DNA from: Bacteroidales bacterium
GTDB taxonomy: Bacteria; Bacteroidota; Bacteroidia; Bacteroidales; WCHB1-69
Length of the DNA stretch: 64,000 bases
Direction of reading: 5' to 3'
NCBI GenBank assembly: GCA_016285085.1
Contig: JAEEQA010000003.1
Span: forward strand, 110-64,109
Under the pieces are notes generated by a model. It searched no databases and was not told the DNA's origin. It saw only the letters and a program-made list of their open reading frames with translations. The position numbers and the translations under genes are program-made. Below, piece after piece: positions 12,356-46,886 of this stretch; positions within the stretch are counted from its first letter, which is position 1; the number at the start of each line of letters is the position of its first letter.

Positions 12356-12385
12356 TGTAGAGACGTTTCATGAAACGTCTCTACA
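12356..12385. repeat. REP-like hairpin, GAGACG family
   Basis: Perfect 30-nt palindrome TGTAGAGACGTTTCATGAAACGTCTCTACA. Confidence 0.9.
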
Positions 12386-18310: not shown

Positions 18311-18366
18311 CCAAACCCCTAATCACTAACCCCTAACCCCTATACCCTAAAACCTATACCCTAAAA
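18311..18366 (+). repeat. C-rich heptad leader (CCCCTAA-like) directly upstream of der ATG
   Basis: ccaaacccctaatcactaacccctaacccctataccctaaaacctataccctaaaa, then ATG. Confidence 0.9.
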
Positions 18367-19671
18367 ATGAGCAACATATTATCCTTGGTCGGACGACCGA
18401 ATGTCGGCAAATCGACACTTTTCAACAGACTGACACAGAGCCGCGAGGCCATCGTGGACTCCATCGCCGGCGTGACCCGCGACCGTAACTACGGCAAGTC
18501 CGACTGGAACGGCTACGAGTTTTCCGTCATCGACACCGGCGGTTACGTGGTCGGCTCCACCGACATCTTCGAGGCCGAAATCCGCAAGCAGGCCGCCCTC
18601 GCCATTGAGGAATCGGACGTCATCGTGCTCGTGGTGGACGGACGCGAGGGACTCTCCCCGCTGGACGAGGAGATCGCCGCCGTGCTGCGCCGTTCCAAGA
18701 AACCGTTCTATCTGGCCGTCAATAAGATTGACAGTCCCTCCAACTTTTTCGACTACAGCGAGTTCTATGCTCTCGGCGTGGACGATCTTTTCCCGATTTC
18801 CGCTGTCTCGGGCAGCGGCACCGGTGAATTGCTGGACGCTGTGGTCAAGCATTTCTCCCACGAGGAGGACCACATCATCGACGAACTGCCGAAAATCACG
18901 GTGGTGGGCAAGCCCAACGTGGGCAAGTCCTCCATCATCAACACCTTCCTTGGCGAAGACCGTCACATCGTCACCCCCATCGCCGGCACCACCCGCGACT
19001 CCATCTTCACCCGCTACACCGGTTTCGGTTTTGACTTCTATCTCGTTGATACGGCGGGGCTTCGCAAAAAGAAAAAGGTGGAAGAAAACCTCGAGTTCTA
19101 CTCCGTGATGCGGGCCATCCGCGCCATTGAAAACAGCGATGTCTGCATCCTGATGTGCGATGCCTCCACCGGCTTCGATGCGCAGGACCTCAACATTTTC
19201 AGCCTCTGCGCCCGCAACAAGAAGGGCATCGTGGTGGTGATGAACAAGTGGGACCTCATCGAAAAGGACAACAAGACGCACGACCAGTACGAAGCCCTGA
19301 TTCGGCAACGTATCGAACCGTTCGACGACGTGCCGATCATCTTCACCTCCGTCATCAACAAGCAACGGATTTACAAGGTGTTGGACACGGCCATCCAGGT
19401 ACACAAGAGCCGGCAGCGCCGCATTCCCACCTCCGAGCTGAACGACTACCTCCTGCCGCTGATCCAGGCCACCCCGCCCCCAATCAACCGCGACAAGGTC
19501 ATCCGCATCAAGTTCGTGACGCAACTGCCGACCGTCACACCCTCCTTCGCCTTCTTCTGCAACCTGCCGCAGTATGTGAAAGAGTCGTACCAACGGTATT
19601 TGGAGAACCGCATCCGCGAGAAGTGGGACTTCCACGGCGTGCCGATCGAGATTTATTTCAGACAGAAGTAG
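18367..19671 (+). CDS. der: Ribosome biogenesis GTPase Der (EngA)
   Basis: 434 aa. Two tandem GTPase domains (GRPNVGKST, GKPNVGKSS) plus a KH-like C-terminus. Confidence 0.95.
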   Translation: MSNILSLVGRPNVGKSTLFNRLTQSREAIVDSIAGVTRDRNYGKSDWNGYEFSVIDTGGYVVGSTDIFEAEIRKQAALAIEESDVIVLVVDGREGLSPLDEEIAAVLRRSKKPFYLAVNKIDSPSNFFDYSEFYALGVDDLFPISAVSGSGTGELLDAVVKHFSHEEDHIIDELPKITVVGKPNVGKSSIINTFLGEDRHIVTPIAGTTRDSIFTRYTGFGFDFYLVDTAGLRKKKKVEENLEFYSVMRAIRAIENSDVCILMCDASTGFDAQDLNIFSLCARNKKGIVVVMNKWDLIEKDNKTHDQYEALIRQRIEPFDDVPIIFTSVINKQRIYKVLDTAIQVHKSRQRRIPTSELNDYLLPLIQATPPPINRDKVIRIKFVTQLPTVTPSFAFFCNLPQYVKESYQRYLENRIREKWDFHGVPIEIYFRQK

Positions 19672-19993
19672 CTCGCTGACGCTCGCATTCCTTTATTTTG
19701 GTTCGCTGACGCTCACCATTTTCAATTTTTGTTCGCTGGCGCGAACATTTGGGCAGGCTTACGCCTGCATTTTGCTCGCTGACGCTCGCATTGTGAGGAA
19801 AACGGTATCGTACCGTGTTTCTGGTACTCTCGGAAGAAAAAAACCACCTCGGAGAGGTGAGATTTTATTAACCCCTTACAAGGCGGCACGAAGTGACGCC
19901 GCAGTATGGGGATTGCGAGGCCCTCGCGCATCCGCCCGCGACACGGGCGGCAGATACGAAAGAACACCACAGGTGTGCCGCGGAAAAAGGGAG
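19671..19993. repeat. Repeat B, copy 1 (5 GCTCGC-type units + GC-rich hairpin module)
   Basis: Aligns by eye with 22623-22996 along its whole length. Starts at the der stop codon. Confidence 0.85.
19837..19868. terminator. Candidate bidirectional terminator inside repeat B1 (A7 - CACCTC ggA GAGGTG - AGATTTTATT)
   Basis: 6-bp GC-rich stem flanked by an A-run and a T-rich run. Lies between convergent der and OMP paralog 1. Same hairpin in B2 at about 22845-22860. Confidence 0.5.
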
Positions 19994-20047
19994 ATTCCGA
20001 TGTGTGGAATGAAGGGATGTTGAGTAGCGGCACTACTACCATTCCCT

Positions 20048-20599
20048 TCAAAACGTGTACCGTATTCCCAGGCACACGTTCCAGTCGAAATGGTGCCAGC
20101 GGACATTGTCCTTGATGAAAACACCATAGCCCGGACGGAAATCCAGCTGCACCGCCAACGGGATTTTGAAAACATACTCCAATCCCGCAATGACATTGGC
20201 ACCCAATTTTCCACCCTTGGCAATTCCTCTTTTGGCATCATACTTGTAACCTCTGGCATAATCTTCCAACGTGCCAAGATATGAAAACCACCAATTATAA
20301 CCGATTGACACTCCACCACCTACAAAAACATACCAATGAGGATTAAATTGTCCCTCATACATCAAATTGGGATTCAATACTACTGAGGACACCGTGACAT
20401 TACTCCAGTCTTCTCCACCCGTACACATGATCTGCAATCCCATATCGGCACTAAAGGCCACCTTTTCTGCCCAGAATGTCTTGTAAGAAAAGCCCCACAT
20501 CGTGCAACCAATCCCGCCGACACTATGCCGGTAGGGCGGTTGCGCCTGCAACGCCAATCCCGCAGCCATCAAGAATACCCAAAGGAGGATTTTTTTCAT
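20048..20599 (-). CDS. Small outer-membrane beta-barrel protein, paralog 1 (OmpX/OmpW-size)
   Basis: 183 aa. Signal peptide ...LALQAQ, alternating amphipathic strands, and C-terminal ...GIRYTF. Paralog of 23025..23573 and 24467..25021. Confidence 0.6.
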   Translation of the reverse strand: MKKILLWVFLMAAGLALQAQPPYRHSVGGIGCTMWGFSYKTFWAEKVAFSADMGLQIMCTGGEDWSNVTVSSVVLNPNLMYEGQFNPHWYVFVGGGVSIGYNWWFSYLGTLEDYARGYKYDAKRGIAKGGKLGANVIAGLEYVFKIPLAVQLDFRPGYGVFIKDNVRWHHFDWNVCLGIRYTF

Positions 20600-20601
20600 A
20601 A

Positions 20602-20636
20602 GTTTTTATGACCTGACATTTCGAGTGCGTTAAAAC
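20602..20636 (-). repeat. 35-nt repeat A, copy 1 (GTTTTAACGCACTCGAAATGTCAGGTCATAAAAAC on minus strand)
   Basis: Read directly. Identical to the other three copies. Ends 2 nt before the ATG of OMP paralog 1. Confidence 0.95.
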
Positions 20637-20652
20637 TCATGAGCAGAATAGA

Positions 20653-20874
20653 TCAGTTCTTAAAAATATCATCATAGGCTGCATATGTAAAAGATAGTGA
20701 GATAAGTATTGAAGAAATTACTATAATAAGCCAATTCTGCTTAATCTCAATCCAAGATAAAGGTCCGATACCCTTACTACTAAAAGAATGGTATAATAAT
20801 ACGTCTATTGTAATAGTGAACACAAAAGTTATAGAAAAAAGCAAGATTTTATTTTTTATTTTCTTTTTTTTCAT
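20653..20874 (-). CDS. Hypothetical 73-aa two-TM membrane peptide (AT-rich cassette)
   Basis: ORF track. Lys-rich N-terminus and two hydrophobic helices. Lies between two identical 35-nt repeats. Low GC. Confidence 0.35.
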   Translation of the reverse strand: MKKKKIKNKILLFSITFVFTITIDVLLYHSFSSKGIGPLSWIEIKQNWLIIVISSILISLSFTYAAYDDIFKN

Positions 20875-20894
20875 CAGAATTTGAATTACTTCTA

Positions 20895-20910
20895 AGTTTT
20901 AACGCACTCG
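20895..20910 (+). repeat. Partial (16-nt) inverted copy of repeat A
   Basis: GTTTTAACGCACTCGA on the plus strand, abutting full copy 2. Forms a perfect 16-bp inverted repeat with the far end of copy 2. Confidence 0.9.
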
Positions 20911-20945
20911 AGTTTTTATGACCTGACATTTCGAGTGCGTTAAAA
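20911..20945 (-). repeat. 35-nt repeat A, copy 2
   Basis: Read directly. Identical 35-mer. Confidence 0.95.
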
Positions 20946-21002
20946 CACTAATTTTCCCATTAGTATTCGTCCTCATAATAAGAGGAAGTCTTATTTCTGA
21001 CT

Positions 21003-21488
21003 TTATTCAAAAAAATACGTGTACTCTACAATTACAGGATATACATGTGTGCAAGCACCACCATTGGTAGGGAAACTATCAAAAGACAGCAAACCAGTAA
21101 CATAACATTTTCTTGAGATATCTACAGTGTCTGGAATATAACCCGAATAATAGTCCAATCGGACAGAAATCTCTGGTGGCTGGTTTCCGATACTTTGTAC
21201 TGCATATTCAGGATCGTCTGTAAGAAACCACTCCCCATTTTCCCAACTTCTTTTATCAAACCATCCACAGACCCGAATGGTGTCTCGATATAACTGATTC
21301 ATTATTTTGTTGTCCTGTCCCACAAAAAATGAATAATTGTATTTAATCGCCTTGCAGGTATTGTAGCCTGTCTCGGAAAGGGGTGGAATATCCTTGTCCT
21401 TCCATTTGTTGTGGCACTGCTTCTCGCAAGAAACGAAAAAAATGGCAATCATTAATGCAAGGAAATACAGATTAACTATTCTTTTCAT
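21003..21488 (-). CDS. Hypothetical lipoprotein (161 aa)
   Basis: MKRIVNLYFLALMIAIFFVSC lipobox. Cys-rich. Lower GC than surroundings. No family recognised. Confidence 0.5.
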   Translation of the reverse strand: MKRIVNLYFLALMIAIFFVSCEKQCHNKWKDKDIPPLSETGYNTCKAIKYNYSFFVGQDNKIMNQLYRDTIRVCGWFDKRSWENGEWFLTDDPEYAVQSIGNQPPEISVRLDYYSGYIPDTVDISRKCYVTGLLSFDSFPTNGGACTHVYPVIVEYTYFFE

Positions 21489-21630
21489 GATAAAATGAAT
21501 TTAAAGTTGTGATTAGAATTTGCCACCTTAACGAGACCCGATACGCCAATATTGCCCCTATTTTTCAATATTTAATCCCTCACGCCGGAAATGTGAACCC
21601 TATTGAGGGGATAAGGTGGTACAGAACACC

Positions 21631-21680
21631 TGTAGGGATGTCATATTATGGCATCCCTACAATTTATGGCATCCCTACAA
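21631..21680. repeat. REP-like hairpin, GGGATG family, plus duplicated right arm
   Basis: TGTAGGGATGTCATATTATGGCATCCCTACAA, followed by a second TATGGCATCCCTACAA. Confidence 0.85.
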
Positions 21681-21716
21681 TGACGCATTTAAATAACAAC
21701 AATGGTCGTATTGTTG

Positions 21717-21744
21717 GTAGAGACGCAAAATTTTGCGTCTCTAC
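21717..21744. repeat. REP-like hairpin, GAGACG family
   Basis: Perfect palindrome GTAGAGACGCAAAATTTTGCGTCTCTAC. Confidence 0.9.
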
Positions 21745-21762
21745 AATTACGTCACACAAAAA

Positions 21763-22587
21763 TCACCTCCGCCTCAGCTGCCAGAACGCCACCGCGGAGG
21801 CCGCAGCCACATTGAGGGAATCCACGTTGTGGAACATCGGGATGCGCACCACATAGTCGCAGCCGCTGATGGTACGTGCCGACAGGCCGTCGCCTTCGGT
21901 GCCCATGATCACCGCCAGCCGCTCGGTCGCGGCCAGCGCCGGGTCTTCGATAGAGACGGAGTTGTCCGACAGCGCCATCGCCGCCGTCTTGAAACCGAGC
22001 CGCCGGAGCCGCTCCATTCCCGCGTCGGGCCAGTCGGTGTGGACCTCGCCGATGTACGCCCACGGGATCTGGAACACCGTGCCCATGCTCACCCGCACCG
22101 TGCGCCGGTTGAGCGGGTCGCAGCTGGTGGGTGTCAGCAGCACGGCGTCGAAGCCGAGGGCGGCGGCGGAACGGAAGATGGCCCCGACGTTGGTGTTGTC
22201 CACCACATTGTCGAGCACCACGATACGGCGGGCGCCGTCGCACACCTCCTCCACTGTCCGTGGCTTCGGGCGGCGCATCGCACAAAGCACGCCGCGGGTC
22301 AGCCAATAACCGGCCAGCTCGGAGAGCAGCGACACCTCGCCCGTGTAGATGGGGATGTCACCGCAACGGGCAATCAGCTCGCGGGCGTCGCCTTCGATGT
22401 GGCGCTCCGCCATCAGCATCGCCAGCGGCTCGCACCCTTCGTCCAGCGCCACCTTGATCACCTTCGGACTCTCGGCGATGAAAATTCCCTTTTCCGGATC
22501 CAGGCGGTTGCGGAGTTGCGTTTCCGTCAGTTTGGAGAACACCTCCACGCCCGGAGCAGAAAGATCGGTGATGCGTACGATATTCAT
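21763..22587 (-). CDS. TrmH/SpoU family RNA 2'-O-methyltransferase
   Basis: Start moved to ATG 22587 (MNIVRITD...), just downstream of a TACCTTTG box. Motifs VVLDNVVDNTNVGAIFRSAAALG, IMGTEGDGLS and SLNVAAA. Confidence 0.85.
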   Translation of the reverse strand: MNIVRITDLSAPGVEVFSKLTETQLRNRLDPEKGIFIAESPKVIKVALDEGCEPLAMLMAERHIEGDARELIARCGDIPIYTGEVSLLSELAGYWLTRGVLCAMRRPKPRTVEEVCDGARRIVVLDNVVDNTNVGAIFRSAAALGFDAVLLTPTSCDPLNRRTVRVSMGTVFQIPWAYIGEVHTDWPDAGMERLRRLGFKTAAMALSDNSVSIEDPALAATERLAVIMGTEGDGLSARTISGCDYVVRIPMFHNVDSLNVAAASAVAFWQLRRR

Positions 22588-22605
22588 ATTCTCAGTTTTG
22601 GACGG

Positions 22606-22613
22606 CAAAGGTA
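22606..22613 (-). promoter_or_regulatory. -7 box TACCTTTG upstream of trmH-family gene
   Basis: 18 nt before ATG 22587. The repeat B2 array begins 9 nt further upstream. Confidence 0.55.
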
Positions 22614-22622
22614 CGATTTTTT

Positions 22623-22996
22623 GGCTCGCTTGCACTCACATTTTTGATTTTGCTCACTGCGTTCGCATTTGGGCTCGCTAACGCTCGCATTCGTTGATTT
22701 GGATTCGCTTGCGCTCACCATTTTCAATTTTTGTTCGCTGGCGCGAACATTTGGGCAGGCTGTCGCCTGCATTTTGCTCGCTAACGCTCGCATTGTGAGG
22801 GAAACGGTATCGTGCCGTGTTTCTGGCACTCTCGGAAGGAAAATCCACCTCGGAGAGGTGAGATTTTATTAACCCCTTACAAGGCAGAACGAAGTGACGC
22901 CGCAGTATGGGGATTGCGAGGCCCTCGCGCGTCCGCCCGCGGCACGGGCGGCAGATACGAAAGAATACCGCAGGTGATGCCGCGGAAAAAGGGAGA
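22623..22996. repeat. Repeat B, copy 2 (7 GCTCGC-type units + GC-rich hairpin module)
   Basis: Longest copy. Lies between the OMP paralog 2 stop and the trmH-family promoter. Confidence 0.85.
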
Positions 22997-23024
22997 GGTA
23001 TGGTCGAAGGTTATACCATTCCCT

Positions 23025-23573
23025 TCAGAACGTGTACCTCACCCCTGCATTGACACTCCAGTCGAAATGATGCCAGATATAATCTGGAATATCATTGAAG
23101 AATATTCCATAGCCCGGACGGAAGTCAAACTGCAGAGTGAGAGGGATATTCAGCTTATACTCCAATCCCAGCATGGCATTGACCCCGAACTTAGCCATAT
23201 CCCAATGGAAATGATTAACATCAGGACGCCAACAATCCCAAGAATAACCTAGACTCACACCACCACCGGCAAAGCCATAAAGTCCCGATACGAAGTTGCC
23301 TTCATACAAGAAGTTAGGGTTTAGCTCCAGATTCCAGAAATCATAAGATTTACATTTCGGATCGTGGTTTTGTCCCTCACTGTCAGTACAAAGAATTTTG
23401 GTCCCTAGGTCCACTTGGATGGCGAAATGGTCGGTTACAAAAGTCTTGTAGGAGAAGGCCTGCATACTTCCAAGCGTGGCACCGATACTGTGTTTGTACG
23501 GAGTTTGGGCTTTCAAAGTACCCACTAAGCAGAAAATGGCGCAAATGGCTGTGACAAAGATTTTTCTTTTCAT
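23025..23573 (-). CDS. Small outer-membrane beta-barrel protein, paralog 2
   Basis: 182 aa. Signal peptide ...GTLKAQ and C-terminal GVRYTF. Very similar to paralog 3 except for three blocks. Confidence 0.65.
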   Translation of the reverse strand: MKRKIFVTAICAIFCLVGTLKAQTPYKHSIGATLGSMQAFSYKTFVTDHFAIQVDLGTKILCTDSEGQNHDPKCKSYDFWNLELNPNFLYEGNFVSGLYGFAGGGVSLGYSWDCWRPDVNHFHWDMAKFGVNAMLGLEYKLNIPLTLQFDFRPGYGIFFNDIPDYIWHHFDWSVNAGVRYTF

Positions 23574-23603
23574 GATAAAATGAATTTGAATTTGTGATTA
23601 GAA

Positions 23604-23638
23604 GTTTTAACGCACTCGAAATGTCAGGTCATAAAAAC
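23604..23638 (+). repeat. 35-nt repeat A, copy 3
   Basis: Read directly. Identical 35-mer. Begins 30 nt upstream of the ATG of OMP paralog 2. Confidence 0.95.
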
Positions 23639-23671
23639 CCAAATGCAAAAAACAGAATATCGGAAGTCGGT

Positions 23672-24283
23672 TCATTCAAAAAGGGGAATAAGAAATCTAA
23701 TATAACAATCTGACAACTGTGATTTTTTTGGAAATAAATATACTGGGGAACTATAGATTCTGTTGTATTCATAATTAAAGCGCCTAGCTTGGATATAGAC
23801 TGACAAAAAACAACTGGTGTTGTAGGTGAATATTTTATAATGTGCTTCCCCCTCCTCAATTATTTTGACTATTGAGGAATGTGGCTGCCATTCATCCGTA
23901 AATGAATTTTTTACCCGATAGTAAAGCATACTATCTTTGATTGCAGGTAAAATGACACGATGTAAAAACGTATAGCCAACTTCTTTATGAAATGAATGAG
24001 GTTTTAGCATATTCTTGGCAAATTTTCTTCCGCTGATAGTTTTTTGGGGTATGTCAAGTGTGTCAGACCAATAATACAATTTAGCTTGATTATCAAAAAT
24101 GCGGTTCTTGACGAAAGGAGGATTCTTTTTCAAATTATAAAAACAGTACAGTGTATCAAAGTGTTGAACTGTTGATATGATGACATCTTTTTCTGAATAC
24201 ACATAACTATCTGTCTTCTTTTGAGCCATTGATATTTTACATAAAAACAGCCAAGCAAGACATACTATAAGATGTTTTTTCAT
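23672..24283 (-). CDS. Hypothetical secreted protein (203 aa, AT-rich cassette)
   Basis: Signal peptide MKKHLIVCLAWLFLCKISMAQ. Low GC. Bracketed by two identical 35-nt repeats. No family recognised. Confidence 0.5.
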   Translation of the reverse strand: MKKHLIVCLAWLFLCKISMAQKKTDSYVYSEKDVIISTVQHFDTLYCFYNLKKNPPFVKNRIFDNQAKLYYWSDTLDIPQKTISGRKFAKNMLKPHSFHKEVGYTFLHRVILPAIKDSMLYYRVKNSFTDEWQPHSSIVKIIEEGEAHYKIFTYNTSCFLSVYIQARRFNYEYNRIYSSPVYLFPKKSQLSDCYIRFLIPLFE

Positions 24284-24403
24284 AAAACATTTTATTTTTT
24301 ATATTGGAGTTTACCCTGCATTTCTTCGCCATTTTTTATGCCTGATGTGGTAGCCATAGCATCGCTACTTGTTTTTGGATTGCCGCTTGTTACGGTTCCT
24401 GTG

Positions 24404-24438
24404 GTTTTAACGCACTCGAAATGTCAGGTCATAAAAAC
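24404..24438 (+). repeat. 35-nt repeat A, copy 4
   Basis: Read directly. Identical 35-mer. Lies 28 nt beyond the stop of OMP paralog 3. Confidence 0.95.
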
Positions 24439-24466
24439 GGTATGGTCGAAGGTTATACCATTCCCT

Positions 24467-25021
24467 TCAGAACGTGTACCTCACGCCGGCGTTGACACTC
24501 CAGTCGAAAAAATTCAACTCATTGTTGGGAAGGTCATTGAAGAACATCCCGTAGCCGGGGCGAAAATCAAACTGCAAGGTGAGGGGAATGTTCAGTTTGT
24601 ACTCCAATCCCAGCATGGCATTGACCCCGAACTTACCCATATCCCAATACTCCCCAAAACGAAACACTCCGGGTTTCCATGCATCCCAAGAATAACCCAA
24701 GCTCACGCCACCACCGGCAAAGCCATACAGACCCGCTACAAGGTTGCCTTCATACAAGAAATTGGGATTCAGTTCCAAATCCCAGAAATCAAAAGCTTTC
24801 CATTTCGCACCGTGGTTTTGTCCCTCACCGTCGGTACAAAGAATTTTGGTACCCAAATCTATCTGAATGGCAAAATGATCGGTTACAAAAGTCTTGTAGG
24901 AGAAGGCCTGCATGCTGCCAAGCGTGGCACCAATACTGTGTTTGTAAGGAGCTTGGGCTTTCAAAGTACCCACTAAGCAGAAAATGGCGCAAATGGCTGT
25001 GACAAAGATTTTTCTTTTCAT
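24467..25021 (-). CDS. Small outer-membrane beta-barrel protein, paralog 3
   Basis: 184 aa. Same signal peptide as paralog 2 and C-terminal GVRYTF. Confidence 0.65.
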   Translation of the reverse strand: MKRKIFVTAICAIFCLVGTLKAQAPYKHSIGATLGSMQAFSYKTFVTDHFAIQIDLGTKILCTDGEGQNHGAKWKAFDFWDLELNPNFLYEGNLVAGLYGFAGGGVSLGYSWDAWKPGVFRFGEYWDMGKFGVNAMLGLEYKLNIPLTLQFDFRPGYGMFFNDLPNNELNFFDWSVNAGVRYTF

Positions 25022-25164
25022 GATAAAATGAATTTGAATTTGTGATTAGAATTTGCACCCCATAACGGGAATCGCTGCGGCGATATTGCCCCTGTTTTGC
25101 GGTATTTAATCCCTCACAACAGAAATGTGAACCCTATTGAGGGGATATGATGGTTCAGGACACC

Positions 25165-25196
25165 TGTAGGGATGTCATAATATGGCATCCCTACAA
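25165..25196. repeat. REP-like hairpin, GGGATG family
   Basis: TGTAGGGATGTCATAATATGGCATCCCTACAA. Confidence 0.85.
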
Positions 25197-25225
25197 TCAC
25201 GCACATTAACAATGGTCGTATTATT

Positions 25226-25255
25226 TGTAGAGACGTTTCATGAAACGTCTCTACA
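25226..25255. repeat. REP-like hairpin, GAGACG family
   Basis: TGTAGAGACGTTTCATGAAACGTCTCTACA, identical to 12356-12385. Confidence 0.9.
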
Positions 25256-25267
25256 ATCACACCGTGC

Positions 25268-26293
25268 CTATTTCTCCGTAATTTTCTTTAAATCATTAAT
25301 AAATGAATCGATATCGGCTTCGGTGGTGTCCCAAGAGGTCACCAAGCGGATTTCGTTCGTCTGCTCATCCCACACATAGAAGAAGTGGTTTTTCAGAAGC
25401 TGCTCCGTCACATCGGGGGCCAGTTTGAGGAGCAGGGTGTTGGCCTGCGTAGGCTGCGTGAATTCGAAGTTGCCCGTCTCTTCGATGCGGCGGCGGAGCA
25501 GCTGCGCCATCGCGTTGGCGTGCGCAGCATTCTTGTACAGAAGGTCGTTGTCGAAGTAGGCCAGAAACTGGGCGGCGACGTACCGCATCTTCGAGAAGAG
25601 CTGGGTGGTCTGCTTGCGGAGGTAGCGGAGCTCCGTGGCCAGTTCGGGACGGAGGGCGATGACGGCCTCGGCCATCATGCAGCCGTTCTTGGTGCCGCCG
25701 AAGCTGATGATGTCGGCCCCGCAGTCGGTGGTCAGCGCCCTGACGGTGGTGCCGAGGGCGACAGCCGCGTTGGCGAGGCGGGCGCCGTCGATGTGGAGGT
25801 ACATGCCGTAGGAGTGGACGAAATCGGCGAGGGCGCGGAGTTCATCTGGGGTATAGACGGTGCCCAATTCGGTAACTTCGGACACATAGACCACACGCGG
25901 TTGGGAGTGGTGCTCGAAGCCGAAGCCGTGGAGCAGCGGCCGGATGAGGTCGGGCGTGAGCTTGCCGTCGGGCGCGGGCACCTCCTTGACGGCAGCACCG
26001 GAGAGGTAGCCGGGGGCGTTGCACTCGTCCACGGCGATGTGGGCGGTGGCGGCGGCGATGATGGCATGGTAGGGGCGGCAGCAGGCCCGCATGGCGATGG
26101 TGTTGGCGCCGGTGCCGTTGAACACGAAGAAGGGTTCGGCCGTTTCACCGAAAACCTCCTTCAGGCGGTGCGTGGCGCGGAGGGTCCAGTCGTCATCACC
26201 GTAGGCGAGGGCGTGGTCGGCATTTGCATTGAGGATGGCCTCCATCACCTGCGGATGAACGCCTGAATTGTTGTCACTTCCGAAACTTCTCAT
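25268..26293 (-). CDS. ltaE: Low-specificity L-threonine aldolase (beta-eliminating lyase family)
   Basis: Start moved to ATG 26293 (MRSFGSDNNSG...), downstream of a TACCTTTG box. GGTKNG PLP-lysine region. Confidence 0.85.
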   Translation of the reverse strand: MRSFGSDNNSGVHPQVMEAILNANADHALAYGDDDWTLRATHRLKEVFGETAEPFFVFNGTGANTIAMRACCRPYHAIIAAATAHIAVDECNAPGYLSGAAVKEVPAPDGKLTPDLIRPLLHGFGFEHHSQPRVVYVSEVTELGTVYTPDELRALADFVHSYGMYLHIDGARLANAAVALGTTVRALTTDCGADIISFGGTKNGCMMAEAVIALRPELATELRYLRKQTTQLFSKMRYVAAQFLAYFDNDLLYKNAAHANAMAQLLRRRIEETGNFEFTQPTQANTLLLKLAPDVTEQLLKNHFFYVWDEQTNEIRLVTSWDTTEADIDSFINDLKKITEK

Positions 26294-26312
26294 AGTGGTT
26301 AGTTTTGGGCGG

Positions 26313-26320
26313 CAAAGGTA
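26313..26320 (-). promoter_or_regulatory. -7 box TACCTTTG upstream of ltaE
   Basis: 19 nt before ATG 26293. The repeat B3 array begins 10 nt further upstream. Confidence 0.55.
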
Positions 26321-26330
26321 CAACTTTTCG

Positions 26331-26443
26331 GGCTCGCTTACGCTCGCATTCTTTGATTCTGCTCACTGCGTTCGCATTTGGGCTCGCTGACGCGAACATT
26401 TGGGCAGGCTCACGCCTGCATTTTGCTCGCTGTGCTCGCATTT
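26331..26443. repeat. Repeat B, copy 3 (array part only, internally deleted)
   Basis: Units match B2 units 1, 2, a 3/5 fusion, 6 and 7. Lies immediately upstream of the ltaE promoter box. Confidence 0.8.
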
Positions 26444-26502
26444 CTTTCCACTTTTTCAACATTTTATTGTTTAAAAGCATCCTCTTTCCGAAAAATTAAT
26501 AG

Positions 26503-26510
26503 TACCTTTG
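26503..26510 (+). promoter_or_regulatory. -7 box TACCTTTG upstream of rpoD (long leader)
   Basis: 113 nt before ATG 26624. Confidence 0.5.
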
Positions 26511-26623
26511 CAAACTTTTTTCGCAAGGGTGTTTTTTCTTGTAACAAAATGCGAAAACAAGCCGTAAAATGGTCTGTTTGAACAAGATTTGGACAAAAAA
26601 TATTTAGAAACAAAATACTGAAT

Positions 26624-27487
26624 ATGAGACAATTAAACATTACCAAGCAGGTAACGAACCGTGAAACCGCCTCGTTGGACAAATATCTGCACGATATTGG
26701 CAAAGTGGAGCTGATTACCGCGGAAGAAGAGGTGGAATTAGCGCGAAAAATCAAGGACGGTGACCAGGAGGCATTGGAGAAACTCACCAAAGCGAACCTC
26801 CGTTTCGTCGTTTCCGTCGCCAAGCAGTACCAAAACCAGGGACTCAGCCTCCCCGACCTCATCAACGAGGGCAACCTCGGCCTCATCAAGGCAGCCCAGC
26901 GTTTCGATGAAACCCGCGGCTTCAAATTCATCTCCTACGCCGTATGGTGGATCCGCCAGTCCATTCTCCAAGCCCTGGCCGAACAGTCGCGTATCGTTCG
27001 TCTGCCGCTCAACAAGATCGGCACCATCAACAAGATCAACAAGGCCTACGCCTATTTGGAACAGGAGTACGAGCGCGAACCCCGCGCCGATGAAATCGCT
27101 GCCCTGCTCGACATCACCGAGTCGGAGGTGAAAGATTCAATGCGCAACTCCTCCCGCCACCTCTCCATGGATGCCTCCCTCACACAGGACAAGGACAACA
27201 ACATGTACGACGTCCTCAAGTCGGAAGACTCCCCCACCCCGGACAAAGGCCTTCTGTACGAGTCGCTGAAACAAGAAATCAACCGCACCATCTCCACGCT
27301 CCCGCAGCGCGAAGCCGACATCATCAAACTGTACTTCGGACTCGACAGCAAGCACCCGATGACCCTCGAGGAAATCGGTGAGAAATTCGACCTCACCCGC
27401 GAACGCGTCCGCCAGATCAAGGAGAAGGCCATCCGCCGCCTCAAGAATCAGGCGAAATGCAAGAACCTCAAGGCCTATTTGGGGTAA
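26624..27487 (+). CDS. rpoD: RNA polymerase primary sigma factor
   Basis: 287 aa. Sigma-70 regions 2-4 ([36 protein letters not shown]). The size is typical of Bacteroidota sigma-A. Confidence 0.95.
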
Positions 27488-27521: not shown

Positions 27522-27557
27522 TGTAGAGACGCAAAATTTTGCGTCTCTACATTTTTT
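27522..27557 (+). terminator. rpoD intrinsic terminator (REP-like GAGACG hairpin + T6)
   Basis: TGTAGAGACGCAAAATTTTGCGTCTCTACA followed by TTTTTT. Confidence 0.8.
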
Positions 27558-30381: not shown

Positions 30382-30412
30382 TGTAGAGACGCCTTAATAT
30401 GACGTCTCTACA
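30382..30412. repeat. REP-like hairpin, GAGACG family
   Basis: TGTAGAGACG-ccttaatatga-CGTCTCTACA. Lies 10 nt after the valS stop. Confidence 0.85.
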
Positions 30413-35312: not shown

Positions 35313-35342
35313 TGTAGAGACGCGAATAATCGCGTCTCTACA
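35313..35342. repeat. REP-like hairpin, GAGACG family
   Basis: TGTAGAGACGCGA-ataa-TCGCGTCTCTACA. Lies between the GT4 gene and ispD. Confidence 0.9.
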
Positions 35343-36580: not shown

Positions 36581-36613
36581 TTGTAGGGATGTCATAGTAT
36601 GGCATCCCTACAA
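36581..36613. repeat. REP-like hairpin, GGGATG family
   Basis: TTGTAGGGATGTCATAGTATGGCATCCCTACAA. Lies between dnaJ and the GT4 gene. Confidence 0.85.
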
Positions 36614-45461: not shown

Positions 45462-46085
45462 ATGAGAACTATTTTTTGCAAGCTACTGATAATCATTATT
45501 GCAATGTTTCCGCTGTTCCTTTCAGCGCAGAATTTCCGCGGCGGGCTGCGTGCAGGCATGACCATGACACAAATGTCGGGCGACGACCTGTCGGGCTTCC
45601 ACAAGCTCGGTGCCTACGCCGGCGGCTTTGTCAACTGGCGCTTCATCCAGAACGACCGCTGGGCCATCCAGCCGGAAATCAACTTCGTGATGAAGGGCAG
45701 CAGCGCCTATCTGAAAGCCGACAAAAACGGCAACATCGGGGCCAAGTATGTGCTGACGATGTACTATATGGAGGTACCTGTTCTGGTCAAGTGCCGCATT
45801 GTGAAGGGTTTGGAGGCGGAGTTGGGACCGACTTTCGGCGTGCTGATCGGCGCGACAGAAAAGGATGCCAACGGCAAGATGCCTGGACGGATGCCGTTCC
45901 GTTGGTACGAATTTTGCGCAATGGGCGGCGTTTCCTACCTTTTCAAGGAACACTTCGGAATCAATTTCCGATATGTGCAGACATTAGTGCCGGTGCGTGT
46001 GTGCGACGATCGGCACTCCAACTACCGGTGCAACAAGAAACAGTTCAGCAGCGAACTCGCCCTCAGTGTTTTTTACCAGTTCTAA
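45462..46085 (+). CDS. Outer-membrane beta-barrel (porin family) protein
   Basis: 207 aa. Signal peptide and a small-barrel strand pattern. Confidence 0.6.
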   Translation: MRTIFCKLLIIIIAMFPLFLSAQNFRGGLRAGMTMTQMSGDDLSGFHKLGAYAGGFVNWRFIQNDRWAIQPEINFVMKGSSAYLKADKNGNIGAKYVLTMYYMEVPVLVKCRIVKGLEAELGPTFGVLIGATEKDANGKMPGRMPFRWYEFCAMGGVSYLFKEHFGINFRYVQTLVPVRVCDDRHSNYRCNKKQFSSELALSVFYQF

Positions 46086-46154: not shown

Positions 46155-46886
46155 GTGAAGTCTTGTAGAATCTATATTGCTGCTGTTTTGTTAGCCGCCT
46201 TCTCGTTCGGAATTGCAACGGTGAATGCGCAGTCGTCGAATTTCGGTGTTCCCAATCTGATGCGGTACGACAGCAAACGGTTCCATTTCGGGTTTCTGCT
46301 GGGATACAACCAATTCGACTTCACCATCCGTTCCAAAGCCGACCTGAGCGAGTACGATTCCCTGATGGTGGTCAACACAGCGGCGATGAGCGGTTTCAAC
46401 CTCGGCATCGTCACCAACCTGCGTCTCGGCAAGTTCTTCGACCTTCGCCTCATTCCCGGCCTATCGTTCGGCGACCGCGTGGTCAACTACACCATCCTGT
46501 ACCCCGACCAGTCGCGATTAGTGACCAAAAAGAACATTGAATCCGTCTATTTGGACGTGCCTTTGCTGTTGAAATTCAAGTCGTCGCGAATGCACAACGT
46601 CCGGGCCTACGTCATCGGCGGCGCCCAGTACAGCCTCGACCTCATTTCCGCTGCAAAAAAGAAGAACACCAATCCAAAGGAAATCATGCTGAAGCTTTAT
46701 CCGCACGACGTGCAGGCGCAGGTGGGTGTCGGCATCGACATCTATTGCACCTACTTCAAATTCACCACGGAATTCAAAATGTCGTTCGGGCTGATAAACC
46801 TGCTGGTGGCCGAAGACAACATCTATGCCTCCAGCGTCCATTCGCTCAAGTCGAAAATGATGCAGATTTCCTTTATTTTTGAGTAG
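46155..46886 (+). CDS. porT: PorT/SprT-like T9SS outer-membrane protein
   Basis: 243 aa (GTG start per track). RFHFGFLLGYNQ and VYLDVPLLLKFKS strands resemble PorT-family barrels. Confidence 0.55.
   Translation: MKSCRIYIAAVLLAAFSFGIATVNAQSSNFGVPNLMRYDSKRFHFGFLLGYNQFDFTIRSKADLSEYDSLMVVNTAAMSGFNLGIVTNLRLGKFFDLRLIPGLSFGDRVVNYTILYPDQSRLVTKKNIESVYLDVPLLLKFKSSRMHNVRAYVIGGAQYSLDLISAAKKKNTNPKEIMLKLYPHDVQAQVGVGIDIYCTYFKFTTEFKMSFGLINLLVAEDNIYASSVHSLKSKMMQISFIFE

Follow-up and report, generated by a model that had tools for sequence, protein, structure and literature searches.

The window spans 64,000 nucleotides of DNA from a Bacteroidales bacterium of the rumen and carries, within the core chromosome, an accessory region in two intergenic slots, ltaE|trmH (slot 1) and trmH|der (slot 2), which contain duplicated outer-membrane-protein (OMP) units and small gene cassettes edged by a perfect 35-base repeat (Table 1). 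The housekeeping genes identified around these modules encode Der, a SpoU/TrmH-family methyltransferase, a beta-eliminating lyase (ltaE) and RpoD; family searches matched no family for orf73, the 161-aa lipoprotein or orf203. All data behind the locus and the array comparisons are metagenome assemblies. Every module listed in an earlier, sequence-only reading of this DNA was found where that reading had placed it, and the repeats occur far above chance.

Table 1. Features of the accessory region, with positions numbered from the first nucleotide of the window.
Feature	Position	Strand	Basis or comparison
B1 array, degenerate 22–30-nt units (AATG-N6-N4-N6), ending at der stop codon	19671–19800	−	92% identical to B2 array
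B1 hairpin module, structured 3′ region of OMP1, terminator-like hairpins on both strands	19801–20047	−	Fold, terminator scan; 95% vs B2
OMP1, 183-aa small beta-barrel OMP, subfamily b	20048–20599	−	77% nucleotide identity to second OMP of L118
Repeat A copy 1	20602–20636	−	2 nt upstream of OMP1 ATG
orf73 cassette, 275 nt, 28% GC (73-aa membrane-like ORF, 20653–20874)	20637–20911	−	ORF and repeat edges
Repeat A copy 2	20912–20946	−	Perfect copy
161-aa lipoprotein gene, no family	21003–21488	−	C leader and first 10 coding nucleotides common with OMP2 and OMP3
C1, two generic terminator palindromes after trmH, then ~150-nt conserved leader/promoter region	21489–21762	−	Sequence comparison
SpoU/TrmH-family RNA methyltransferase (trmH), housekeeping	21763–22587	−	Family match; orthologues 91–95% identical
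B2 array and trmH promoter GTACCTTTGCCG	22588–22802	−	Sequence comparison
B2 hairpin module, 3′ region of OMP2	22803–22996	−	Terminator scan, comparison with B1
OMP2 unit (28-nt 3′ flank, gene 23025–23573, 30-nt leader)	22997–23603	−	Sole OMP copy in L004–L006
Repeat A copy 3	23604–23638	+	Perfect copy
orf203 cassette, 765 nt, 33% GC (ORF 23672–24283)	23639–24403	−	Repeat edges, recurrence elsewhere
Repeat A copy 4	24404–24438	+	Perfect copy
OMP3 unit (gene 24467–25021)	24439–25051	−	85% identical to OMP2 unit; missing from L004–L006
C2, terminator palindromes after ltaE and leader region	25052–25267	−	Sequence comparison
ltaE-like beta-eliminating lyase/threonine aldolase, housekeeping	25268–26293	−	Family match
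B3 array and ltaE promoter GTACCTTTGCCG, without hairpin module	26294–26443	−	Sequence comparison

Module B combines bidirectional terminator-like hairpins with the following gene’s promoter region, its array being a minisatellite that runs into the promoter. B1 (19671–19975) and B2 (22673–22976) share 92–95% identity, B3 (26327–26443) corresponds to the array part only, and the RNA fold is strong (z = −4.0 for the B1 hairpin module). In different genomes, the B array with its promoter was found upstream of ltaE, trmH or yicC, always in one orientation; B1 itself adjoins the der stop codon and has no gene downstream. In module C, terminator hairpins that belong to the preceding gene are followed by the leader of the next one: C1 and C2 are 86–87% identical over ~186 nt, and in the close relative L118 the orthologue of C1 drives an OMP gene. 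The C hairpins belong to a palindrome family with nine copies across the window (none expected), nearly all of them intergenic and beside gene ends. The C core, TAGGGTTCACATTTC..GTGTGA, is unchanged across five diverged copies; comparison of these copies revealed no covariation, and an Rfam search returned no family match at the modules. C–gene–B is an ordinary transcription unit that has been copied, and the surviving part of the shared order is trivial.

The three OMPs (182–184 aa) match OMP_b-brl weakly and all end in ...RYTF. The OMP2 and OMP3 units (22997–23603/6 and 24439–25051/4) are 85% identical across 616 nt, confirming the tandem duplication of a ~610-bp unit proposed in the sequence-only reading, and the gap between them is exactly the A–orf203–A block (23604–24438), as that reading had also stated; the edges of both units are exactly cassette-like. 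Its claim that one order of modules occurs twice stood in part. The elements are in place in both units, but repeat A has opposite orientations in the two, on the chromosome and relative to the genes, OMP1 shares only 42% protein identity with OMP2 and OMP3, the position of the ‘secreted-protein gene’ is taken once by an OMP gene and once by an unrelated lipoprotein gene, and B1 is not followed by a gene.

Four related genomes fill the two slots in different ways. In L118 and L119 (92–96% identical to the window), slot 1 is reduced to the ltaE stop codon, 5 nt and the trmH start codon, and slot 2 holds C1, two OMP genes (OMPa, OMPb) and hairpins, the B hairpin being absent from L118. L010 (86–91%) has an OMP1-type remnant, an insert and B in slot 1, with just ~150 nt of hairpins in slot 2, and L009 (85–91%) has a gene for a 530-aa OMP-like protein in slot 1 and two secreted proteins in slot 2. 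Three contigs from the same species as the window (L004–L006, 99.8% identical in ltaE/C2) cover slot 1 only, where they carry C2, a single OMP gene of OMP2 type at 90 of 90 informative sites, and B2; they lack exactly the 1448-bp block made up of OMP3, A, orf203 and A. This haplotype has no copy of the repeat at that position, which implies insertion there without a pre-existing repeat, unless the haplotype represents a secondary deletion. The content of both slots thus differs from species to species, and in slot 1 from strain to strain as well. The comparison across relatives suggested in the sequence-only reading yielded differing patterns of module presence and absence, which may reflect either gain or loss, as in the 5-nt spacing of ltaE and trmH.

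We consider it reasonably probable that the region has a two-layered origin, with a duplicated expression unit and repeat-A cassettes in a variable accessory region. In the first layer, one expression unit (C, a small beta-barrel OMP gene and B) would have been duplicated or moved between slots, as suggested by the paralogy of B1/B2, C1/C2 and OMP2/OMP3 and by comparison with relatives. Copying of this unit between slots would produce the same order twice, with no further cause needed, and the repeated order appears best explained by common descent rather than by obligatory cooperation of the modules. The earlier proposal that the locus was built around conserved genes by segmental duplication and repeat-bounded insertion is borne out by these paralogous copies and by the variability of the slots in relatives.

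The same reading had gone further and taken the recurrent order as a sign that A, B and C work together in transcription, termination or processing. A role as cooperating cis-elements of this kind, with their order kept by selection, now looks unlikely. Terminator-like hairpins and promoter-proximal sequence in B and C, the invariant C core and the constant placement of the B array ahead of a promoter would suit such a role, but A-bearing arrays elsewhere contain neither B nor C, and A is inverted between the two window units. Furthermore, in L118 the B array and promoter lie upstream of yicC without the other modules, while C and the OMPs occur without the B hairpin, and L091 has a truncated C with an inverted B-type hairpin module next to it; the lack of covariation in C and of Rfam matches also counts against cooperation. 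By and large, each module was found to occur independently of the others, without a preferred order.

Repeat A (GTTTTAACGCACTCGAAATGTCAGGTCATAAAAAC, 35 nt) occurs in the window as four perfect copies, against none expected in shuffled sequences. The end of the orf73 cassette is a partial inverted A of 16 nt (20896–20911), which pairs with copy 2 in a perfect stem of 16 bp and breaks at position 19/20 of R, the reverse complement of A. R itself has ends GTTTT...AAAAC and weak dyad symmetry only; in a fold test it formed no hairpin or internal structure and was not integron attC-like. The A core is carried by 18 metagenome loci, and arrays on other rumen contigs use the identical 35-mer under a common plan: an 87-nt leader, R, a series of cassettes each followed by R, a degenerate R and a conserved end module. 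The first repeat, beside the conserved leader, is perfect and the last degenerate; cassette content differs in almost every contig, while both array flanks are constant. Sequence identity ends exactly at the 35-nt edges of R, where 19 different flanks adjoin upstream and 21 downstream. Cassettes range from 31 to 2288 nt and from 28 to 57% G+C and are compact, mostly with one ORF; in nine of ten, the main ORF runs in the same direction as R, starting 14–121 nt past it and ending 3–190 nt before the next. These arrays show that repeat A is a junction repeat of gene-cassette arrays, not local debris, and the orf73 and orf203 segments of the window are cassettes of this type bounded by repeat A. 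We found no description in the literature of such highly variable, integron-like arrays with repeat A.

Chimeric joins made at short repeats during metagenome assembly are a very improbable source of these junctions: although contig ends often fall in or near R and one contig (L007) has an odd B2/ltaE join, the same junctions recur in independent sample assemblies from NCBI, ENA and JGI and also lie inside long contigs (36–288 kb).

The arrays adjoin a phage tail-tube-like gene in a prophage remnant, where they take up the slot for accessory genes; intact phage genomes have just one accessory gene there, with the same end module after it. Array cargo includes a cation-efflux pump, an MBL-fold hydrolase and secreted proteins of 660–720 aa, and family searches matched no known immunity family. 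Most cargo proteins are secreted, are lipoproteins or belong to the outer membrane, and a quickly varying cell surface is therefore a likely benefit of cassette exchange. Some cassette edges cut through genes, in L097 a nitroreductase after 34 codons and in L092 a Ppl/TrlF-like gene after ~200 of ~900 residues; these edges, and the weak symmetry of R without a hairpin, we count against the two-layer account.

In the second layer of that account, R would be a discrete double-stranded recombination site at which an enzyme whose gene lies elsewhere inserts, excises and swaps cassettes, as happens in integrons or rAID-1 arrays. Searches of the window, of the sequence up to 10 kb from arrays with gene calls and of the ORF list of L101 turned up no recombinase, transposase or cas gene, so this enzyme is purely inferred. 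Homologous recombination between OMP copies would then add or remove blocks such as the 1448-bp segment.

Two further loci (L110 and L111) carry the orf203 segment with identical ends between other genes, without any R, and here R-by-R recombination would give no better fit than capture or target duplication. Homology that stops exactly at the R edges is what target-site duplication would leave if R were CRISPR-derived or CRISPR-like, with a Cas1-like integrase cutting both repeat edges and inserting gene-sized ‘spacers’ leader-proximally. The length, ends and lack of internal structure of R, the conserved leader by a perfect first repeat, the degenerate last repeat, the partial genes at cassette edges and a 31-nt unit between two repeats of one array all point the same way. 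However, the 31-nt unit looks like a scar, because it contains a degenerate piece of R; neat, co-oriented single-gene cassettes dominate, which random capture would not predict; repeats of single arrays differ in their SNP combinations; and there were no cas genes in the areas searched, no ordinary array with R among the 18 metagenome loci, no Rfam CRISPR-DR match and no anti-repeat. We therefore regard a CRISPR-like origin as doubtful.

Equally hard to favour is a role for R as a short conserved ‘linker’ through which a phage single-strand-annealing recombinase would exchange accessory genes by homology, without a site-specific enzyme. This would accord with the primary arrays lying in a prophage remnant’s accessory-gene slot, with copies that are perfect or nearly so across the full 35 nt and with the lack of a dedicated recombinase nearby. 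Yet homology exchange gives no fixed length, whereas the edges of R are exact across ~20 flanks on each side, and both the inverted half-site break and the degenerate platform copy fit a defined site better.

Duplicated ‘mobile promoters’ have been described in prokaryotes, and the B array and promoter, upstream of three unrelated housekeeping genes, may resemble these, B’s own mobility being a candidate at most. Like phage ‘morons’, primary R arrays sit in an accessory slot, replacing the single gene that intact phage relatives carry between the tail-tube-like gene and a conserved intergenic module; a moron, however, is a single unit bounded by promoter and terminator, whereas R arrays are repeat-bounded. 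With CRISPR, they share a 35-nt repeat, a conserved leader, identical internal and degenerate terminal repeats and the one 31-nt unit, but the other inter-repeat units are 275–2288 nt long and protein-coding, and nearby cas genes, a CRISPR-DR match and an anti-repeat are lacking.

The closest known systems are integrons and the Bacteroidales rAID-1 arrays. Like sedentary chromosomal integrons and CALINs (attC clusters without an integrase), R arrays consist of compact, mostly single-ORF, co-oriented cassettes with a repeated site between every pair, a platform-side hybrid site and constant platform flanks around content that varies between strains, and like CALINs they have no adjacent integrase. 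attC sites are imperfect hairpins of 57–141 bp, specific to each cassette, whereas R is a 35-bp unstructured site perfectly conserved between cassettes; in addition, no IntI was found for R arrays, they lie in a prophage remnant and some of their cassettes hold several genes or partial genes. In rAID-1 (recombinase-associated acquired interbacterial defence), a XerD-like tyrosine recombinase heads an array that has been described as resembling an integron and liable to acquire genes (bioRxiv 10.1101/471110, 10.1101/2025.05.03.651265). R arrays differ in that they have no such recombinase, their cargo matches no known immunity family and cassette G+C spans 28–57%. The rAID motif itself is published as a figure only. 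Both systems belong to Bacteroidales and combine co-oriented short genes, conserved repetitive intergenic sequences and many low-G+C cassettes.

The window belongs to the core chromosome of a Bacteroidales bacterium from the rumen that has not been cultured. Contigs 99.7–99.98% identical to it were found in cattle-rumen metagenome assemblies, and its nearest named genomes are metagenome-assembled genomes (MAGs) from yak, sheep and other ruminants. Read right to left on the minus strand, the locus begins at rpoD (divergent) and runs through B3 and ltaE into the ltaE–trmH gap (slot 1), which holds C2, OMP3, A, orf203, A, OMP2 and B2; after trmH (SpoU family), the trmH–der gap (slot 2) holds C1, the gene for a 161-aa lipoprotein, a partial A with a full A, orf73, A, OMP1 and B1, up to the end of der (convergent). 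Here, A is a 35-mer repeat and R its reverse complement, B is an OMP 3′ hairpin module plus a minisatellite array, and C is a pair of terminator palindromes plus a leader. Housekeeping genes have a G+C content of 56–69% and inserted genes 28–47%; no large ORF in the 64 kb matched a recombinase, transposase or cas family. The main interest of the locus lies in repeat A, which we infer to mark an integron-like cassette system served by a candidate enzyme encoded elsewhere.

The elements described in the sequence-only reading of this mosaic locus were confirmed. Repeat A occurs in four perfect copies (none expected) plus a 16-nt inverted partial copy; two OMP units share 85% identity across 616 nt, with A-orf203-A occupying precisely the gap that separates them; B1 and B2 are 92–95% identical over ~305 nt, B3 having only the array and promoter part in common with them; and C1 and C2 are 86–87% identical. 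Assembly by duplication plus repeat-bounded insertion, as that reading proposed, is likewise supported. The two units nevertheless differ: A lies in opposite orientations, the OMP1 protein is only 42% identical to OMP2 and OMP3, and C is followed in one unit by an OMP gene but in the other by the gene of an unrelated lipoprotein. The further claim that an order recurring twice shows the modules cooperating was not supported, as the modules also occur separately in related loci; the recurrent order is ordinary, a copied transcription unit.

The contents of B and C bear this out. C begins with two palindromes of the type GTAGRGAYG...CRTCYCTAC, a family with nine copies in the window (none expected), nearly all of them intergenic and near gene ends, for example after rpoD and valS; they look like the genome's standard terminator or REP-like hairpin, generic rather than locus-specific. 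Their loops differ in sequence, some being common to distant copies. The remainder of C, a leader of ~150 nt whose core (TAGGGTTCACATTTC..GTGTGA) is invariant, stands in five diverged copies upstream of differing secreted-protein genes, with no convincing covariation as a 5′-UTR RNA. The B hairpin module folds strongly (z = −4.0) and carries hairpin and T-run motifs on both strands, as would be expected where transcription terminates between two convergent or tandem genes. The B array, a degenerate minisatellite of 22–30-nt units, leads directly into a Bacteroidetes-type promoter (GTACCTTTGC); a sigma-70 promoter scan is uninformative for Bacteroidetes. Array and promoter keep one orientation throughout, whether upstream of ltaE and trmH in the window, of trmH in the related locus L010 or of yicC in L118, and the B array is thus a promoter-proximal module. 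With terminators, leader and promoter so placed, C-gene(s)-B is an ordinary transcription unit. Rfam searches of the whole window at the gathering threshold, of 19500–26700 at E ≤ 1, and of L099, L101 and L107 returned only one tRNA. A tandem repeat of AACCCCT / AACCCCTAAACACTAAAACCT, in about 2.5–5 copies, was seen in the yicC–der gap.

Comparison of the two slots across relatives gave a varied picture. Contigs L004–L006, from the same species (ltaE/C2 99.8% identical), carry C2, OMP2 and B2 in slot 1, slot 2 falling outside the contigs; their OMP is of OMP2 type at 90 of 90 informative sites, and they lack exactly a 1448-bp block comprising the OMP3 unit, A, the orf203 cassette and A. L118/L119 (92–96% identical to the window) have nothing in slot 1, with 5 nt from ltaE stop to trmH start, and in slot 2 have C1, an OMP 82% identical to OMP2, 8 nt, an OMP1-type gene and hairpins. 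L010 (86–91%) has a 106-nt OMP1-type remnant, a 0.9-kb insert and B in slot 1 and only ~150 nt of hairpins in slot 2, while L009 (85–91%) has a 530-aa OMP-like gene in slot 1 and two secreted-protein genes in slot 2. In L091, a B-type hairpin module lies inverted, adjoining a truncated C. These differences mark both slots as rearrangement hot spots in which modules occur separately; the simplest account of the order occurring twice would be copying or relocation of a single C-OMP-B unit between the slots. The presence/absence variants around ltaE-trmH-der form a clean natural series, usable to time and orient events.

Two further observations concern this region. In L010, an AAA_14/DUF4143 ATPase gene stands in place of B3 between rpoD and ltaE; such genes recur at the edges of variable regions, also in L099, L107, L109 and L094, others of them lying just past the R-array end module. 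In L007, a 744-nt bovine-gut contig, the B2 hairpin region is joined directly to the interior of ltaE, reflecting either a genuine rearrangement or a chimeric assembly at a hairpin rich in G+C.

The OMP1, OMP2 and OMP3 proteins are putative small beta-barrel OMPs (OMP_b-brl / PorT-like), a kind marked by a signal peptide, a length of about 180 aa, an aromatic residue at the C-terminus and a match to the family profile; all three end in RYTF. Pfam OMP_b-brl gave 21.8 and 19.6 bits, under the 28.7 cut-off, with OMP1 unmatched; homologues form 277 clusters in Bacteroidales, a few of them carrying PF13505/PF13568 or a PorT-family name. Elsewhere in the window lies a tandem pair of PorT-like OMP_b-brl_2 genes, which, at only 16–24% identity to OMP1, OMP2 and OMP3, form a separate small-OMP pair. 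The 161-aa lipoprotein gene has a 35-nt leader and its first 10 coding nt (ATGAAAAGAA) in common with OMP2 and OMP3, and that C1 leader is the one driving an OMP in L118, so that the lipoprotein seems to have replaced an OMP gene just past the ORF start. No family was found for orf73, orf203, the lipoprotein or gene X (the gene upstream of the array leader) in Pfam, NCBIfam, PHROGs or PDB sequences.

An exact scan of JGI metagenome contigs with the 24-nt core of A gave 18 loci: two variants of the window locus (L091, L098), the others being arrays. R is carried, for example, by the MAG GCA_017527275.1 and the JAEEG* rumen assemblies. Each array opens with a conserved leader of 87 nt and a perfect R, continues with one to three or more units, an R behind each, and closes with a degenerate last copy (R*, differing from R in its final 2–5 nt), CTAATGATGGCTTGAAGTCTAA and a ~125-nt module with a terminator at its end. 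Exchangeable units meet at R, which is discrete and 35 bp long; over all loci it has 19 distinct upstream and 21 distinct downstream neighbouring sequences, and identity ends exactly at its 35-nt edges. Array content is hypervariable between fixed flanks, with at least six different units directly after the leader and six directly before R*; R-bounded blocks also vary between near-identical strains. R copies inside single arrays show differing SNP combinations. The cassettes are compact and co-oriented: units measure 31, 275, 489, 505, 571, 765, 985, 1305, 1452, 2226 and 2288 nt, and in nine of ten the main ORF is co-oriented with R, starting 14–121 nt past it and ending 3–190 nt before the next. 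Their cargo includes small lipoproteins, a META-domain protein, a DUF4919 lipoprotein, secreted proteins of 660–720 aa, a cation-efflux protein and an MBL-fold hydrolase. Judged by unit size, ORF orientation and spacing, orf203 and orf73 are cassettes too, and at every contact with R the edges of the OMP2 and OMP3 units (each a 30-nt leader, the gene and a 28-nt flank) are cassette-like. In the NCBI Bacteroidales MAG locus L109, the unit after the second R spans at least 2.7 kb and carries an ArsR/thioredoxin/DsbD/ArsP metal-resistance cluster, so R-bounded units are not restricted to single genes. No tRNA gene serving as an integration target was found at the arrays or in the window. Scans of viral contigs for the A core and for the 31-nt unit gave no hits, and all trmH-related, orf203-related and phage loci were free of A-like sites at up to 9–10 mismatches.

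Coordinates of features in the window and in related loci
Sequence	Coordinates	Feature
Window	18314-18366	Tandem repeat, yicC–der gap
Window	21479-21523, 23564-23608, 25012-25056	Common start region of lipoprotein, OMP2 and OMP3
Window	12357-12384, 21632-21660, 21717-21744, 25166-25194, 25227-25254, 27523-27550, 30383-30411, 35314-35341, 36583-36611	Palindrome family copies
Window	45462-46085, 46155-46886	PorT-like OMP_b-brl_2 pair
L007	686-744	Join of B2 hairpin region (window ~22954) to ltaE interior (window 26227-26169)
L107	8034-8182, 12270-12417	End module
L110	6860-6985	End module
L127	10908-11030	End module
All R-array ends		End module
L109	11679-14356	Unit after second R
L010	5879-7528	AAA_14/DUF4143 ATPase gene
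L099	5072-6174	AAA_14/DUF4143 ATPase gene
L107	12462-13474	AAA_14/DUF4143 ATPase gene
L109	4986-6236	AAA_14/DUF4143 ATPase gene
L094	1638-2852	AAA_14/DUF4143 ATPase gene

Gene X, of ~190 aa, lies upstream of the leader. The best matches of its structure model (pLDDT 73) were to phage tail-tube proteins and were weak, at E = 4e-3 and a TM-score of 0.48 (target-normalised) or 0.35 (query-normalised). Full-length homologues occur in phage genomes, where endolysin, primase and ClpP-type protease genes and a capsid-sized gene precede X; after it come a terminator and promoter, a single gene of 239 aa, the end module known from the arrays and further phage genes. On account of the tail-tube-like fold and the position among phage structural genes, X was rejected as a hidden recombinase. 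Given the phage context of X and of the end module, the R arrays therefore occupy an accessory (‘moron’) slot of a prophage remnant. In array locus L101, only the 3′ part of X is left, between chromosomal genes, and in the relative L107 the slot is present without leader or R. The end module, a conserved non-coding stretch of ~125–150 nt (GGGCGACCGGGCACGC...GTTGTCGCGG...) followed by a terminator hairpin, matches no Rfam family; it is found in phage genomes and other accessory islets as well, sometimes twice as direct repeats 4.2 kb apart.

We propose that R is a double-stranded site at which an enzyme encoded elsewhere would carry out recombination. Several features are at odds with a simple integron-like picture. 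R cuts a nitroreductase ORF after 34 codons in L097 and a Ppl/TrlF-like gene after ~200 of ~900 residues in L092. In L110/L111, the orf203 cassette recurs (95.7% identity) with a pyridine-nucleotide oxidoreductase gene on one side and clpB on the other, homology running from the first base past one R to within 4 nt of the other, with R itself absent. The partial A of the window (positions 1–16) adjoins a full inverted copy, giving a perfect 16-bp stem (z = −8.9); the break, at R position 19/20, would lie within the central spacer on a 14-7-14 reading of R. Some such oddities are better fitted by homology-driven exchange through a phage recombinase, which may operate here, and some by repeat-duplicating capture resembling CRISPR adaptation, which may build the arrays. 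It is improbable, in our estimate, that an integrase of this kind, or another new enzyme, captures gene-sized DNA at the 35-bp site by the leader. CRISPR spacers are of uniform length, about 26–72 nt, in contrast to R-array units of 31–2288 nt, and the 31-nt unit between two R copies in L097 holds a degenerate piece of R (GTGACCTGAAACA vs ATGACCTGACATT), which makes it scar-like rather than spacer-like. No cas domains turned up within 10 kb of arrays with called genes, nor in the window; R matched no Rfam CRISPR repeat family at E ≤ 1, and neither leader nor end module held a tracrRNA-like anti-repeat. If capture did occur, it would be the work of a system separate from integrons that resides in the accessory slot of a prophage and seeds cassettes into core-chromosome slots such as the one in the window.

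If R works as a recombination site, rumen Bacteroidales have a cassette system built unlike integrons around a short, unstructured, perfectly conserved 35-bp site with no recombinase alongside. Genes for surface and secreted proteins would then be shuffled in a platform derived from a prophage as well as in gaps between housekeeping genes of the core. This would add a mechanism by which strains of an abundant gut and rumen group vary their surface, and R would be a simple sequence tag with which cassettes could be located in metagenomes.

Known systems match this arrangement in part. In Xer/dif modules (IMEX, pdif), dif-like sites are 28 bp long, with an 11-6-11 architecture and palindromic inner arms, and pdif modules are flanked by inverted sites; R, in contrast (compared with the E. 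coli dif consensus), has 35 bp of which the outer 5 nt alone are palindromic, and each cassette stands between copies in direct orientation. Integrons share with the arrays compact, co-oriented, mostly single-ORF cassettes and variable content between conserved flanks. Their attC sites are imperfect palindromes of 57–141 bp that fold as hairpins (R''-L''...L'-R'), whereas R shows no such fold (DNA minimum free energy −0.5 kcal/mol, z = +0.7) and an inverted partner upstream at only one of 19 junctions, to which the excess in mean score (5.5 observed, 4.5 null) is owed. The R arrays also have no IntI-type recombinase gene alongside: no recombinase domain was found among called genes within 10 kb of the arrays in L107 and L109, and none was seen in the L101 ORF list. 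The defining features of Bacteroidales rAID-1 are a XerD-like recombinase, short genes of low G+C that share one orientation, and conserved motifs between the genes (bioRxiv 10.1101/471110, 10.1101/2025.05.03.651265). R-array genes are co-oriented, but their ORFs span 73–720 codons and cassette G+C 28–57%; tail-tube-like X stands upstream of the leader where rAID-1 has its XerD-like tyrosine recombinase. The rAID-1 intergenic motif is published as a figure only. No T6SS or other immunity family was found for orf73, orf203, the lipoprotein or the array ORFs in Pfam, NCBIfam and PHROGs, though remote homology may exist. R arrays thus resemble integrons and rAID-1 in outline and differ in the defining recombinase at the head, attC structure and immunity cargo. 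Literature searches for a Bacteroidales cassette system with such repeats turned up rAID-1 alone, and an R-marked integron-like cassette system appears to be undescribed so far, its closest known counterparts being integrons, including CALINs, and Bacteroidales rAID-1.
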